Origin: a phage
Direction: 5' to 3' (one strand)
Assembly: GCA_013027745.1 (NCBI GenBank)
Contig: GCA_013027745.1_4329.1
Length of the DNA stretch: 41,168 nucleotides
Within the stretch, counting starts at the first letter, position 1. Every line of letters starts with the position of its first letter. Below the pieces are notes generated by a model. It worked only from the letters and a program-made list of their open reading frames with translations, had not been told where the DNA came from and did no database searches. Shown piece after piece: positions 13,124 through 18,496 of the stretch. The translations under genes were made by a program, and so were the position numbers.

Positions 13124-14173
13124 TTAAGCACCTACACCAGTTACCAGGAAGGCAATCGGCACGTGCTTACGGTCAACCACACGGTTCCAGTTGGAGGCGT
13201 TCGCCAGGTCCTGCCAGGAAGCGGAGCGTGCGACGGTCTCGGTGCCGTTGCCAGTGATTACTGCGCTGGTGAAGCTGTAGCCCAGTGGGTGCAGCAACCA
13301 GGTCTTACGGGTCCACAGGGTTTCTACACCACCGCCGTTGCCGCGAGACGCTTCACGTTCGTATTCCAGCGGGTTGGACGGGCTGCCTTCACCATAACCG
13401 ATAGCGCCGTTGCCGAAGATGATGGAGATGAACTTACGGCCCGGGCCAGTACCGACTACGGTCATGCTGTCGTCAACAATCACGCGGTAGCCCTGGTAGG
13501 TGGCGAACATGGTGTTGTTGTCGGCGTCGCGGATGAAGTCAATAAGCTGCTGCTTACGAGCCTGCGCATAAACGAAGCTGTGCATCGCGATAGCACCTAG
13601 CACTTCGCCGCCGTTGCCCATCAGCGCATCACCCATAGTCTGGGTAGCGTCGATGAATGCGCCGGAGTCGAAGCCCAGAGTAGCAGACACGTCGATTACC
13701 ATGTCGTTCTGCTCGTGGTATGCGTCGGTAGCAGCTACGTTGTCGTTGTACAGACCGAGCGCGGTAGCAATCAGACGGCGTTGCGCCTGACGCTGCCAGA
13801 AGTTATCCAGACGAGATGCCACGGATTGCAGAGGGTTCTGGCTGGTCAGTTCTACAGTCAGGTCTGCCTGACTGAAACCTTCGTTCAGATACGCAACGCG
13901 CGCCATCATCTCGCCGGTCTGCACGTTACGCGGGGTAGCGATGTCCTGATATACGTCGTTCGAGTAGTTTGGCTCGATAGAGGTATCAATCGCTTTCCAG
14001 AAAGGAATATTAGCGACGTTGGATGGGCCACGAGCAATCTCGGCAGCGTACGGAGTCGGGGTAAGGATACCAGACTGGAAGAACGCGGTTTTTTCTACCG
14101 GGTCCTCGGTCATGTAAGACGCCAGGACCGGGATGTTGCCAGTTACGATATCGCCGATAGTGGTAATTGCCAT
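13124..14173 (-). CDS. major capsid protein
   Basis: 349 aa ORF immediately downstream of the scaffold gene and followed by a terminator. Confidence 0.75.
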   Translation of the reverse strand: MAITTIGDIVTGNIPVLASYMTEDPVEKTAFFQSGILTPTPYAAEIARGPSNVANIPFWKAIDTSIEPNYSNDVYQDIATPRNVQTGEMMARVAYLNEGFSQADLTVELTSQNPLQSVASRLDNFWQRQAQRRLIATALGLYNDNVAATDAYHEQNDMVIDVSATLGFDSGAFIDATQTMGDALMGNGGEVLGAIAMHSFVYAQARKQQLIDFIRDADNNTMFATYQGYRVIVDDSMTVVGTGPGRKFISIIFGNGAIGYGEGSPSNPLEYEREASRGNGGGVETLWTRKTWLLHPLGYSFTSAVITGNGTETVARSASWQDLANASNWNRVVDRKHVPIAFLVTGVGA

Positions 14174-14175
14174 TA

Positions 14176-14877
14176 TTATTTCCTCAGGGCTTTAAGTTGC
14201 CGTTCAAATTCGGTAGGGTTCGATTTATACAGAGCTAAACGCTCCGCTTCGCTCATGTCTTTAAACGCTGGTGCGGCCCCGCCGCCTTTGCTACCGGAAG
14301 CCCCGCCGCCGGAAGCTGCATTTGCTTTAATCAAATGCGAAAACGCTTTGTGTTCACGCAGGTATTTGCGGAACTGTTCCGGGTCAGTCGTGATTACGTT
14401 GCCGTCTGCGCCGACAAACTTAGTAACCACGTCATCGCCTTCAAACTCAGTCTTAACGAACGGAGCCAGGATGTCCACTGCTTCCGGGGTGATAAAGTCA
14501 CCCGCGAAAGAGCCTAACACCGCTTTACGTTCGCTGCCGAGGATGCGCTCTGCCATTCTGGAGATGCGACCATCTTTCTCGGCTAACACCGGGTCATACT
14601 GGCTACGAATCGTTTTTTCGAACTCGTCCATCTTACCAGCGGCTTTTAACGCCTCCTGGTGTGCGCGCTGCCGTTCTTCTTCGGCCTCTTTTGCTTTGCG
14701 AGCGGCTTCTTTCTTCTCCGCCAGCAACGCTTCCTGATTAGCCTTAAGCCCGGCGACTTCTTTCTCAATCAGCGCCTGAACTTCTTCAGCGGTGAACATT
14801 TTCGGTGCGCCACCGCCACCGGCTTTATCTTCTGCCCCAGCTTCTTCCTGGAACGGATAACGTAAAAAACGATTCAT
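14176..14877 (-). CDS. scaffolding protein
   Basis: Charged Ala/Glu/Lys-rich helical protein directly upstream of the capsid gene; likely start MNRFLRY at 14877. Confidence 0.65.
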   Translation of the reverse strand: MNRFLRYPFQEEAGAEDKAGGGGAPKMFTAEEVQALIEKEVAGLKANQEALLAEKKEAARKAKEAEEERQRAHQEALKAAGKMDEFEKTIRSQYDPVLAEKDGRISRMAERILGSERKAVLGSFAGDFITPEAVDILAPFVKTEFEGDDVVTKFVGADGNVITTDPEQFRKYLREHKAFSHLIKANAASGGGASGSKGGGAAPAFKDMSEAERLALYKSNPTEFERQLKALRK

Positions 14878-15830: not shown

Positions 15831-16115
15831 ATGACACACAAATTTAAAGGTACAGACGGTGAATGGGTTAATCGTGGAACGGCTATCTGGGCGGGTGATG
15901 TTTATGTGGCGGAGGTAATGAGTATGCGGGAGAAGGCCTCAGTGAAATTGGCTAACGCAAAACTTATTTCCTCAGCACCTGAATTAATTGAAGCCCTTCG
16001 CCAGCTTCGCGATTACGTTGAGGATGTTTGTGTAGTATCCCCTGAGGATTGTCATAAGGACCACCCATTAAATCTGGCAAACAGAGCAATCGAGAAAGCA
16101 TTAGGAAAGAAATAA
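15831..16115 (+). CDS. hypothetical protein (moron with own promoter and terminator)
   Basis: 94 aa ORF, SD aggagg, opposite orientation to the surrounding head genes. Confidence 0.55.
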   Translation: MTHKFKGTDGEWVNRGTAIWAGDVYVAEVMSMREKASVKLANAKLISSAPELIEALRQLRDYVEDVCVVSPEDCHKDHPLNLANRAIEKALGKK

Positions 16116-16143: not shown

Positions 16144-16605
16144 TCATTCGGGCTTAGTGACCTTCGCCGCTTTACTTACGGCCTCTACACCATCGGCATC
16201 GGTGACTTTAACGAAGTATTCACCTGCTGCATTAACCGTCAGAGACAAAGCCTCTTCAGGGGCGTTGACCACTTCCTTACCGTCTTTGTACCAGGTCAGA
16301 GCATACGGCGCTTTACCGGCCTTAACTTCGACAGTGATAGTTGCGTTGCCGTCCGTCAGTTCGGCGTCTTTTGGTTGTACGGAGAAATATACATCGCCTG
16401 CGTCCGCCAGATACGGAATCTCGTAAAGCATACCCGCTGCGGGTAGTGCAATACCGGTTTTATCTGCAAAAGGCATGTCGTCTACTGGTGTACCTAGTAC
16501 ACTTTCGTCCCCAATAGACACCACGTTCTCACCGGAGCCAGACACACGAGCAAACTGGACTACACGACGTGAAGGCACATCAGTTACTTTGAAAAAGCCC
16601 ATCAT
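16144..16605 (-). CDS. Ig-like domain protein (putative virion decoration)
   Basis: C-terminal Ig-like signature YALTWYKDGKEV...GEYFVKVTDADG. Confidence 0.55.
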   Translation of the reverse strand: MMGFFKVTDVPSRRVVQFARVSGSGENVVSIGDESVLGTPVDDMPFADKTGIALPAAGMLYEIPYLADAGDVYFSVQPKDAELTDGNATITVEVKAGKAPYALTWYKDGKEVVNAPEEALSLTVNAAGEYFVKVTDADGVEAVSKAAKVTKPE

Positions 16606-18496
16606 TAACCCCTTTCAGATAATCAGCGACACGTTTATCGAGTTCCGCCATCTGCTTAAGCGTGAGCGGATTCCCGAAACCATCTACAGATATTACGCGA
16701 AACTCTTCCGGCGATATACCGCTGTTGCGGAAAATCTTACCACGAACAGGGCCGAGGGCCTGGTCCTGGAACCATGCAGGTTGTTGTTTCAGGAACTCGT
16801 AATAGGTTGTGTCCGCGCTTACCTGAGTGCCGCCGTCCGCGCCCTTAGCCGCGCGTTTTGCGCCTTTATCTAGGAAATCGAACTCTGAGCTGATTACGGG
16901 TGCGGTTGTGGAGCGACAGTTATGTGCTATAATTCCATTTGCAAGATACCAGTTCTGTTCATTTTCGAGGTTATAAACATGCCCGCAAAAATCAGCTTCA
17001 CTAAAGACCAAATCGACAACATCATCAAGCTCTACGCCGACGGCATCGGACCAGTTGAAATCGGAAAGATTATCGGCGTTTCGTGCAGCCCAGTTATACG
17101 CGTTCTCAGAGAGAACGGCGTTAGGATCCGCGGCGGCAGCGACGCTATGTTTATCAGAATGGCTAAAGCTACTCCTGAGGAGCGCCTCGCTCTCTCCGCC
17201 GCGGCGCATGAAGCTGTCCGAGGGAGAAAGGCCGACCATGCTGAACTGCTTCGCAGAGCCAAAGCCAGGGAGGGAGTCATCAACGCCGGCAGTCACTGGG
17301 AGTTCCTTGTCAATGATTTGCTTATTCAGACCGGACTTGACTTTATTCCAGGAAAGGCGGTCGACAAGTATAATCTCGACTTCGCCGTCGGTTCCGTCGC
17401 CGTGGAAGTCTTCGGGGGAGGTTGGGCTTGTACTGACCGCCGCCGGATTGACCGCTACATTAGCCGCACTAAACAAATCGGAGAACTTGGCTACAACGTT
17501 GTGTTCCTTATGCTTGAGAGAGAGCGCAGAGTCCTTAGCGCACACGAGCTTGTCGCCTATATTGAGAAGGCCGGAAGCAACCCAACCACGGGCAGTCAAT
17601 ACCTGGTGGTTTGGGGTGATAGACAAGGTGCGACCGGACTTTGTAGAGACATAGACTATAGGGCCTTTGTACGTCCGTTTAAAAATGTTAGAAACAGGGC
17701 TACCGGTAGATACTACAGTGTCCCCAAGTAAGCAATTAGGATGGGCCGGAGGCATCGGCCCTTTACCGATTTCCCACGTCATCCCGTCCCTGGCTCTGCA
17801 AATCGTGCTGGTACGGCTGTCCAGCGTTGACACCCACTCGTACTTCTCAATGATATCGTCGTTCTGGCGGTACGTCTCGTTACGGGCTTCGTTGGATACG
17901 TGGGACAGCGCGGTGCGAATTACCGTAGCCGCGTTACGTTCAGAGATGTCCGCCAGCCCACCGGCACCAACAACATTCTTAACAATCTGCCGTGTTGTCT
18001 GGCCTTGTACGAAACCCATCTTAACGCCAGTTACCAGGCGCGCGACCTCCGCTTCGCCCCAGCCAGACATCAGTTTAGTGAAGTCAACAGGCTTGTCGCT
18101 TAACGATAGGGGTTGAAACTCGGCAGCAGACCACACCTGCTCAGCGGTCGGGATAACAAATTCAGCGTTGACGTTAGCCGTGAGTGTTTTCACATTCCAC
18201 TCAGCCTCATACGCTGCCAGTTCCTTAAGGTCTTCGGTCAGCTTTGTTTGCCAGTCTCCGGCTAGCCCTGTCAGTGCTTCTTCTAAGTCGCGTAACAGTT
18301 TATTGAGACGCGCGGTGCTTCTCCCGTCGTCGCCGAACAACAGCACCTGCCGTTTGATTTCATCCCGCATCTCCTGAATGAACGGTGCGAGGTCTTTCAC
18401 TTCGCCAGATGCGTTGCGTTGCAGCCAAATCTGGTGGCTGATTAGTGATGTCAGTAAGCTCATAAATAAACCCTGTGGCGCTAAAGTTAATAGCAT
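16580..18496 (-). CDS. head morphogenesis protein (MuF/SPP1 gp7-like) containing an intein
   Basis: 638 aa ORF between portal and scaffold; conserved AHPN-C site split by a Hint domain; predicted spliced product about 366 aa. Confidence 0.8.
   Translation of the reverse strand: MLLTLAPQGLFMSLLTSLISHQIWLQRNASGEVKDLAPFIQEMRDEIKRQVLLFGDDGRSTARLNKLLRDLEEALTGLAGDWQTKLTEDLKELAAYEAEWNVKTLTANVNAEFVIPTAEQVWSAAEFQPLSLSDKPVDFTKLMSGWGEAEVARLVTGVKMGFVQGQTTRQIVKNVVGAGGLADISERNAATVIRTALSHVSNEARNETYRQNDDIIEKYEWVSTLDSRTSTICRARDGMTWEIGKGPMPPAHPNCLLGDTVVSTGSPVSNIFKRTYKGPIVYVSTKSGRTLSITPNHQVLTARGWVASGLLNIGDKLVCAKDSALSLKHKEHNVVAKFSDLFSAANVAVNPAAVSTSPTSPEDFHGDGTDGEVEIILVDRLSWNKVKSGLNKQIIDKELPVTAGVDDSLPGFGSAKQFSMVGLSPSDSFMRRGGESEALLRSSFSHSDKHSVAAAADPNAVLSENAYNWAARNADNLSDFNWSDAVGVELDDVVDLVFSEADFCGHVYNLENEQNWYLANGIIAHNCRSTTAPVISSEFDFLDKGAKRAAKGADGGTQVSADTTYYEFLKQQPAWFQDQALGPVRGKIFRNSGISPEEFRVISVDGFGNPLTLKQMAELDKRVADYLKGVNDGLFQSN
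16919..17734 (-). mobile_element. intein (Hint domain, 272 aa, residues 255-526 of the host protein)
   Basis: Block A CLLGDTVV, block B GRTLSITPNHQVLT, blocks F/G VYNLENEQNWYLANGIIAHN followed by +1 Cys; no in-frame LAGLIDADG/HNH motif seen in the central region. Confidence 0.8.
16979..17731 (+). CDS. HTH plus PD-(D/E)xK (Vsr/DUF559-like) endonuclease-like protein encoded antisense inside the intein
   Basis: 250 codons from ATG 16979 (GAGGT SD 7 nt upstream) to TAA 17729-17731; HTH IGPVEIGKIIGVSCSPVIRVLRENG; core YNLDFAVGSVAVEVFGGGW...DRRRIDRY...GELGYNVVF. Confidence 0.5.
   Translation: MPAKISFTKDQIDNIIKLYADGIGPVEIGKIIGVSCSPVIRVLRENGVRIRGGSDAMFIRMAKATPEERLALSAAAHEAVRGRKADHAELLRRAKAREGVINAGSHWEFLVNDLLIQTGLDFIPGKAVDKYNLDFAVGSVAVEVFGGGWACTDRRRIDRYISRTKQIGELGYNVVFLMLERERRVLSAHELVAYIEKAGSNPTTGSQYLVVWGDRQGATGLCRDIDYRAFVRPFKNVRNRATGRYYSVPK

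Follow-up and report, generated by a model that had tools for sequence, protein, structure and literature searches.

The 41,168-nucleotide stretch of phage DNA analyzed here (GenBank assembly GCA_013027745.1, contig GCA_013027745.1_4329.1; hereafter, the window) derives from a siphophage of the Guernseyvirinae, Kagunavirus/Jerseyvirus-like, whose MuF head-morphogenesis gene is 97% identical to that of Escherichia phage vB_EcoS_GZMU_E2010. Within the intein of this MuF gene, on the opposite strand and in codon-aligned antisense, lies a second gene that encodes a homing-endonuclease-like protein of 250 amino acids. The evolutionary, structural, and comparative evidence is decisive in establishing that this antisense gene is more than a product of chance.

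The MuF gene, its intein, and the antisense frame

The MuF, or minor capsid, gene that carries the intein occupies 16580..18496 on the minus strand and is identified by its matches to Pfam Phage_Mu_F (2e-11) and PHROG 241, head morphogenesis (5.5e-148), as well as by the annotation of the related phage Snoke. As listed, the minus-strand open reading frame (ORF) encodes 638 amino acids; its start is likely ATG 18463, per the annotation in Snoke and relatives. The N-extein (17735..18463, minus strand) ends in ...PPAHPN, and the C-extein (16583..16918, minus strand) begins CRSTTAPV and is closed by a stop codon at 16580-16582. Between the two is a class-1-type intein of 272 amino acids (16919..17734, minus strand; residues 255-526, CLLGDTVV...GIIAHN) that matches Pfam Intein_splicing (3e-9) and presents, in order, Cys1, the block B TPNH, the block F GHVYNLE, and the terminal HN, followed by the +1 Cys. 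The residues that define class 1 are all in place (C255, T-P-N-H, H525-N526, and C527 in the 638-residue numbering), and the C, T, N, H, and HN-C are invariant or near-invariant across 45 host proteins. The insertion point is the conserved H-P-N|C-R motif of the MuF protein. Given these intact motifs and an insertion in the most conserved motif of MuF, the intein is predicted to be active in protein splicing. A split or fractured intein is ruled out, as the host gene and intein form one unbroken 638-residue ORF and 79 of 80 relatives are likewise continuous.

On the plus strand, an open frame at 16922-17731 encloses the nuclease gene and uses codon triplets identical to those of the intein; it is therefore codon-aligned antisense. 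The gene itself, supported by substitution patterns, AlphaFold2 modeling, and homologs, comprises 250 codons plus a stop at 16979..17731 (plus strand) and lies wholly within the intein at 16919-17734, as the initial annotation, made from the DNA letters alone, had proposed. The Leu codon for intein residue 2, read on the opposite strand, forms its TAA stop (17729-17731), and the whole ORF therefore resides within the mobile unit. Three regions can be delineated on the plus strand: a predicted helix-turn-helix (HTH) DNA-binding domain (residues 8-45, 17000..17113); a Vsr-like, EDxHD-related nuclease core (residues about 105-180, 17291..17518) that includes E108 (17300-17302), D134 (17378-17380), E143 (17405-17407), and Ala150 (17426-17428); and a C-terminal part (17519..17728). 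This tail had been said to overlap the N-lobe of the Hint domain, and it does: from about 17483 onward the antisense gene shares its DNA with the Hint N-lobe, so that both frames are constrained, and the C-terminal part has a mixed codon-position pattern with intermediate ratios of nonsynonymous to synonymous substitution rates (dN/dS) in both frames. The Y-R/W-V-I-R-G motif of the nuclease family (YLVVWG in the window) mirrors intein block B, which reads TPNHPV in most homologs and TPNHQV here.

The real start of the 250-residue protein is ATG 16979, kept in all nine close relatives. A Shine-Dalgarno (SD) sequence and this start codon together span 16967..16981 on the plus strand; the GAGGT that the initial annotation had placed 7 nt upstream of the ATG lies at 16967-16971. 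An upstream start at ATG 16922 was rejected, given that vB_STM-ZS has a TAG three codons upstream of ATG 16979 and that in Pantoea AH01 a GTG replaces ATG 16922. A further ORF of 199 amino acids in the third plus frame (17055-17654) overlaps the nuclease gene and looks like a by-product of a stop-poor region; phage PK1 has, at the corresponding place, a shorter ORF that its record lists as a hypothetical protein.

Selection on the two frames

The length of the antisense ORF is by itself weak evidence for a real gene: with TTA, CTA, and TCA together making up 2.6% of phage codons, the chance of a run of 269 open antisense codons is about 8e-4 per site. The initial annotation had cautioned that codon-aligned antisense ORFs arise by chance in this genome, and its example, a 340-residue ORF opposite the capsid and scaffold genes (13715-14737, plus strand), serves as a negative control. 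Because the two sets of codons are aligned, wobble positions on one strand pair with first positions on the other, and the places where substitutions fall distinguish the frames. Across nine Guernseyvirinae sequences, variable sites at plus-codon positions 1, 2, and 3 number [244, 72, 113] in the exteins, where MuF wobble dominates (in the N-extein, too, substitutions are dominated by the wobble of the minus strand), and [41, 21, 93] in the intein center (17033-17482), where antisense wobble dominates (exteins vs. center, chi-square p=1.6e-13). The control ORF presents the sense-wobble pattern ([44,1,6] and [28,0,2]), bears out the caution, and, with a stop in phage Schulenburg, appears to behave as a chance ORF.

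In the intein center, NG86 dN/dS amounts to 0.06-0.18 in the antisense frame versus 0.96-4.3 in the sense frame, values that, coming from two overlapping frames, are not mutually independent. At the intein ends, which form the Hint lobes, sense-frame constraint returns, and in the N-extein dN/dS of the MuF frame is 0.03-0.13; for the plus frame of the exteins the ratio is uncomputable owing to stops, itself informative. The flip in wobble position is reproduced in the Gordonia phages Angelicage and Vivi2, and the Klebsiella phages RCIP0054 and KpTDp1, which have few differences, are likewise biased toward antisense wobble. The synonymous change in the antisense frame that the initial annotation had expected of a genuine gene is thus positive in three phage lineages. 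Purifying selection acts on the antisense frame.

The sense frame of the intein center is Ser/Ala/Asp-rich and matched no endonuclease family in a Pfam scan. In a model of the sense-frame intein only the Hint lobes fold (block-mean predicted local distance difference test score, pLDDT, 58-86), and residues 68-232 score 24-51, in agreement with the original description of this region as low-complexity and devoid of an endonuclease motif. A degenerate in-frame endonuclease domain was accordingly rejected. The AlphaFold2 model of the antisense product, built on an alignment of 22 sequences, has a mean pLDDT of 86.5 and confidently predicts a Vsr-like nuclease fold, the two models differing in alignment depth (22 vs. 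11 sequences). A conserved sense motif, DFHGDG..GEVEI, is the exact mirror of the catalytic motif of the nuclease, YNLDFAVG.VAVEVF.

Each frame also shuns codons that would be stops on the other strand. Among the 24 Leu and 32 Ser codons of the intein (56), the sole TTA, CTA, or TCA is the TTA that forms the antisense stop, and none of the 30 Leu and Ser codons of the nuclease gene belongs to this set. A free-standing homolog, described below, draws on this set freely.

The antisense protein and its relatives

Searched alone against Pfam and PHROG, the window product returns marginal matches only (HTH_7, 0.005; MTES_1575, 0.11), so that a family alignment, here of 22 sequences, is required for significance. 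The alignment profile matches the catalytic domain of the homing endonuclease I-Bth0305I (3r3p, E=4.7e-8), the DUF559-like protein 3hrl (1.2e-6), and resolvase-type HTH domains, in support of the HTH and Vsr/DUF559-like core that the initial annotation had read from the translation. At the level of individual members, Pfam MTES_1575, a Vsr/DUF559-like restriction-endonuclease fold, is found in 10 of 22 and HTH_7 in 11 of 22. Y131, D134, and E143 are invariant in the alignment, and E108, N132, and R163 nearly so; the 3r3p residues aligned opposite E108, D134, and E143 are E170, D196 (A in the crystallized protein), and E206. The canonical PD-(D/E)xK arrangement is absent, as the sequence D134...E143-V144-F145 lacks a Lys two residues after the second acid; divergence of Vsr-type enzymes from this motif has been described (PMC3239194).

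Homologs of the 250-residue product with 24-41% identity were found by tblastn in phages of Vibrio, Gordonia, Mycobacterium, Cronobacter, Klebsiella, Aggregatibacter, Idiomarinaceae, and Edwardsiella and in a Helicobacter prophage, and at all seven loci inspected the match lies antisense within a MuF-type head gene. Closer to the window, about 66 complete Guernseyvirinae intein matches (at least 75% identical by tblastn) were examined; all of them retain an unbroken antisense ORF, nine having been checked codon by codon. A scan of IMG/VR, conducted with an alignment narrower than that of 22 sequences, yielded 311 stretches that encode relatives; the match in contig UViG_3300045988_017057 is 100% identical to the antisense gene. 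Among the best 80 of these 311 stretches, the codon-aligned frame opposite the nuclease match is free of stops in 79, whereas the other two opposite frames contain a mean of 7.8 and 18.1 stops, and 79 are antisense-embedded in an intein ORF that is continuous across the nuclease gene. Homologous inteins thus keep the antisense frame open, as would be expected of the gene first proposed. Forty-four of the 45 non-redundant host ORFs match Intein_splicing, and 33 are MuF-type (30 Phage_Mu_F and three Phage_min_cap2). In 20 loci sampled, the junctions read ...H-x-N|C[LV][LP]GD... and ...GHVYNLE...NGI[IV]THN|CR[SC].

The sole locus of the 80 with opposite-frame stops is IMGVR_UViG_3300028214_000030 (573-2160), where the intein ORF and the nuclease ORF are each broken in two around 1231-1285; the breaks could stem from one frameshift common to both ORFs, from faulty assembly, or from decay of the element. 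The TARA contig P0009 is another embedded case, interrupted by scaffold Ns. The inteins of Klebsiella phage RCIP0054 and of Aaphi23 begin CFPG rather than CL(L/P)GD and end SN|CRC rather than HN|C, and are therefore without the penultimate His; they retain the antisense nuclease arrangement.

A full-length homolog also exists as a separate gene. In Acinetobacter phage vB_AbaM_IME285 (MH853786.1), it is arranged tail-to-tail with an intein-less MuF gene (455-1348 on the plus strand and 1342-2055 on the minus strand), convergent with it and overlapping its stop, about 45 nt from the DNA for the MuF C-K-C motif, which is the intein insertion point in other phages. Over its entire length it aligns with the embedded copy of Aaphi23 at 32% identity (E=2e-42), and its opposite frame contains 13 stops; the protein family therefore exists independent of the intein frame. 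Two parts that mirror intein blocks B and F in embedded copies, namely the C-terminal segment and the start region ATGCACATG, are retained in this free-standing copy, a hint that it left an intein and is not the ancestral form. In the usual scenario, a free-standing endonuclease invades an intein; escape is the reverse.

These relatives bear directly on the proposal that the antisense ORF arose by chance and that its apparent protein-likeness and similarity across phages only reflect, in mirror image, an intein domain conserved in the sense frame and perhaps degenerate. Such a proposal can draw on the existence of the 340-residue chance ORF in the same genome, on the per-site probability given above, and on the cross-phage similarity that the sense frame, too, displays in tblastn. 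It is nonetheless difficult to reconcile with wobble and dN/dS patterns that favor the antisense frame in the center while the control ORF has the opposite pattern and is broken in a relative, with a confident Vsr-like model opposite an unfolded sense center, or with a conserved sense motif that exactly mirrors the catalytic one. Nor does it readily accommodate a free-standing homolog whose opposite frame is riddled with stops, or the rarity of antisense stops in homologous inteins. We consider an origin by chance extremely unlikely.

Mobility, expression, and wider significance

The window intein is 95-97% identical to those of the Salmonella phages PK1 and VSe101 and the E. coli phage Snoke, compared to 67-88% for the exteins, and synonymous substitution rates (dS) contrast similarly: 0.11-0.17 in the antisense frame of the center versus 0.65-2.1 in the exteins. 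For the lineage more widely, dS is 0.11-0.27 in the center and 0.6-3.3 in the exteins. A pair of Klebsiella phages presents the same contrast, with the element more conserved than its flanks. Using a synthetic spliced junction as query, empty sites were found as 141 phage records with an uninterrupted MuF allele, mostly of E. coli Kagunavirus. The intein-less alleles of XY2 and K1ind2 encode exactly PPAHPN|CRSTTAPV, the spliced product of the window, and the junction is precise in both of these aligned alleles. The paper on the Snoke genome noted the intein and its absence from K1ind2; the antisense gene went unmentioned. The presumed homing site consists of a C-extein half (16898..16918) and another half (17735-17755) that are contiguous in empty alleles as ...CATCCTAAT|TGCCGAAGTACC.... 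The element thus combines presence/absence polymorphism at one site with greater conservation than its flanks, which we read as the signature of recent horizontal transfer of the intein and nuclease as a unit. Extra DNA in the UPWr_S5 match was set aside, as it falls outside the MuF gene. Two codons past the insertion site, eight of the nine intein-bearing alleles examined have Ser TCN (CGN TCN ACA; vB_STM-ZS is the exception), and both intein-less Kagunavirus alleles examined have Ser AGT (CGA AGT ACC); this difference could represent a co-conversion tract or an intein-linked difference in the target site.

The same observations speak to the idea of a decaying passenger, that is, a free-standing endonuclease gene that landed in an intein and is now a remnant, the intein itself being only vertically inherited. 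Some VSR-like intein clusters were noted to look vertically inherited in a recent preprint on actinophage inteins discussed below, and both frames are broken at the one disrupted IMG/VR locus. Set against these are the strong purifying selection on the antisense frame, an ORF intact in all complete Guernseyvirinae matches examined and in 79 of 80 viral contigs, and an intein that, between genera of Salmonella and E. coli phages, has diverged far less than the exteins around it. Decay of this kind is, in our judgment, very unlikely.

Possible expression signals for the nuclease gene are found within the conserved splicing blocks of the intein. Read on the minus strand, the SD and start codon fall on two codons of block F, CTC for Leu and CAT for His. 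The His codon sets the antisense start, with CAT giving ATG and CAC giving GTG; it is CAT in 34 of 38 diverse loci (background, 0.42), and the adjacent Leu is CTC or CTT, contributing antisense GAG or AAG to the SD, in 26 of 28 (background, 0.36). Farther upstream, a candidate extended -10 element, TGcTATAAT (16925..16933, plus strand), reads on the other strand as the block G codons ATT ATA GCA (Ile-Ile-Ala) and is kept in eight of nine close relatives and also in Vibrio and Idiomarinaceae phages. The hexamer opposite the block G (I/V)(I/V) is TA[TC]AAT in 16 of 38 diverse loci, where a background of about 0.035 predicts ~1.3. Synonymous codon choice in blocks F and G appears, from these counts, to be non-random.

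We propose, with a probability of about 80%, that the minus-strand intein and the plus-strand Vsr-like nuclease gene constitute a composite selfish element written on the same DNA, whose two parts home together. On the minus strand, a protein-splicing intein would sit at the H-P-N|C-R of MuF; on the plus strand, the same DNA would specify a 250-residue HTH and Vsr-like nuclease. The central ~165 sense residues would act as an open, unstructured linker whose sequence is dictated by the antisense gene, and which is translated and then excised with the intein by splicing. The expression signals of the nuclease would be written in the synonymous positions of splicing-block codons, the ATG as the complement of block F CAT, the SD as that of CTC, and the -10 as that of block G ATT ATA. 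During mixed infection, the nuclease would cleave MuF alleles that lack the intein, at the insertion site or close to it, and recombinational repair from an intein-bearing genome would copy intein and nuclease gene together, while protein splicing would preserve MuF function.

Several observations weigh against this proposal, beyond the interdependence of the dN/dS values and the unequal depth of the structural models. With respect to expression, the p-values for codon bias (1e-9 to 4e-14) ignore shared ancestry and are indicative only, and a consensus scan upstream of 16979 called no canonical sigma-70 promoter, since the -35 is poor; the -10 box is a candidate suggested by codon bias. The antisense gene is also oriented against the late structural operon, and its transcription and translation are predictions from the sequence. 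With respect to catalysis, the general-base His (H213 of I-Bth0305I, H69 of Vsr) is replaced in the window by Ala150, following W149; at this position, 65 of the 80 IMG/VR relatives have His, seven Ser, and five Ala. The final Asp of EDxHD (D222) has its nearest counterpart in D158, one residue off the aligned position, in a column that is variable in the family. DNA cleavage and the cut site are thus putative, and with Ala150 in the place of the general base nuclease activity is predicted rather than assured.

This substitution is the starting point for a different account, which we deem unlikely: that the antisense gene is real and expressed, but that its product, with A or S in place of His, is not a double-strand homing endonuclease. 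Such a protein could be a nickase, an HTH-containing site-specific DNA binder that serves in regulation or directs recombination to its target, or a nuclease whose catalytic arrangement differs, for example one built on D134/E143 and K165. Compatible with this account are the presence of A or S in 12 of 80 relatives, the lack of the PD-(D/E)xK Lys at its usual position (E143-V-F145), and the persistence of purifying selection in this very lineage (dN/dS about 0.1), so that some function has been retained. The fresh transfer signature, though, occurs precisely in this lineage, as an active homing enzyme would produce, and the metal-binding acids are conserved, D134 and E143 without exception and E108 nearly so. 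From purifying selection and recent transfer in the Ala150 lineage, we argue that the antisense protein probably still works, in keeping with the composite element proposed above.

More tentatively, and with a likelihood well below even, these elements may represent one ancient and very widespread lineage of end-to-end dual coding, always in the same codon-aligned frame, with the start codon, ribosome-binding site, and -10 box hard-wired in synonymous positions of blocks F and G and from which free-standing copies have escaped.

The initial annotation had regarded an antisense endonuclease within an intein as unprecedented, which is not the case. Full actinobacteriophage inteins with antisense LAGLIDADG or VSR-like endonucleases were reported by Gosselin, Arsenault, and Gogarten (bioRxiv 10.1101/2025.01.02.630785), whose survey described an HHpred match to 3R3P opposite an unstructured in-frame region and found that minor capsid inteins carried only non-canonical endonucleases. 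The contiguous intein, unstructured in-frame center, antisense VSR-like ORF, and 3R3P match are all shared with the window. The window protein is 35-36% identical to antisense ORFs in the MuF genes of the Gordonia phages Angelicage, Affeca, Vivi2, and Fosterous (E about 1e-23) and is therefore of the same kind. The two sets differ in that the published inteins reside in actinophages and those described here in Guernseyvirinae (phages of Enterobacteria) and many metagenomic viral contigs, and in that the general-base His is Ala in the window lineage. Evidence from codon positions or dN/dS, embedded signals (start, SD, or -10), and a distribution in Proteobacteria phages or IMG/VR are absent from the preprint as read here. 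Within the literature searched, the occurrence in Guernseyvirinae and other Proteobacteria phages, the large metagenomic distribution, the evidence for selection, the embedded expression signals, and the His-to-Ala variant appear to be additions.

Other known systems share parts of this architecture. I-Bth0305I (Taylor et al., 2011, PMC3239194; 3r3p) has in common a Vsr-like fold, N-terminal HTH-type modules, the conserved E, D, and extra acid, and residence in a phage mobile element; it is, however, encoded in the sense orientation in a recA group I intron and employs His213 and Asp222, as opposed to an antisense gene in an intein with Ala150. Fractured genes (Dassa et al., 2009, PMC2677866) likewise combine an intein with a separately translated Vsr-like endonuclease gene, but there the intein and host are split in two ORFs and trans-splice, in contrast to the continuous intein ORF and full-length overlap in the window. 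Antisense LAGLIDADG endonucleases opposite full inteins, the same disposition as here, occur in the Synechocystis DnaX and a Chloroflexus SpoVR-like intein (Gorbalenya, 1998; Gogarten, 2002; both as cited in bioRxiv 10.1101/2025.01.02.630785); the nuclease family and host genes differ. In nuclear group I introns, antisense homing endonuclease genes also run against their self-splicing carrier (PMC9548176), but the carrier is an RNA intron, so that there is no dual coding and no need for both frames to remain open.

Close by on the plus strand, the slot that separates the spanin gene from the head-decoration gene is filled differently from one relative to the next, and mobile or exchangeable genes may have a second hotspot there. 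The window has a 94-residue unknown ORF there (15831-16115, plus strand), PK1 an 'endonuclease V11 protein', and Snoke and XY2 a sliding-clamp-like gene; the slot corresponds to 154-693, 172-693, and 126-647 in the relatives' loci L003, L004, and L018.

In the inspected annotations of Salmonella and E. coli phages (Jerseyvirus and Kagunavirus), several of which are under characterization for therapy and biocontrol, this real nuclease gene is missing or unnamed. The GenBank records matched include PV360690.1 (PK1), MZ560703.1 (TU03), OQ507916.1 (ZCSE7), and MT677934.1 (NBSal007); among those inspected, only PK1 and vB_StyS-sam (and probably PK2) list 'hypothetical protein' ORFs under the nuclease match, with plus-strand ORFs confirmed for PK1 alone among the three. 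Several records label the intein-containing MuF gene 'NAD+--asparagine ADP-ribosyltransferase', and in the Snoke record the intein is annotated as 630 nt (locus 1492-2121), yet the note there gives 273 residues. The 'large intein without an endonuclease domain' of Snoke would, in light of the antisense gene, be a complete homing element. More broadly, an antisense architecture reported as rare in actinophages dominates this nuclease clade and spans phages of both Proteobacteria and Actinobacteria. It offers a clean natural case of long antisense dual coding, in which the codons of splicing blocks would double as the expression signals of another gene, and the flip in wobble position that gives it away is a simple diagnostic for hidden antisense genes.

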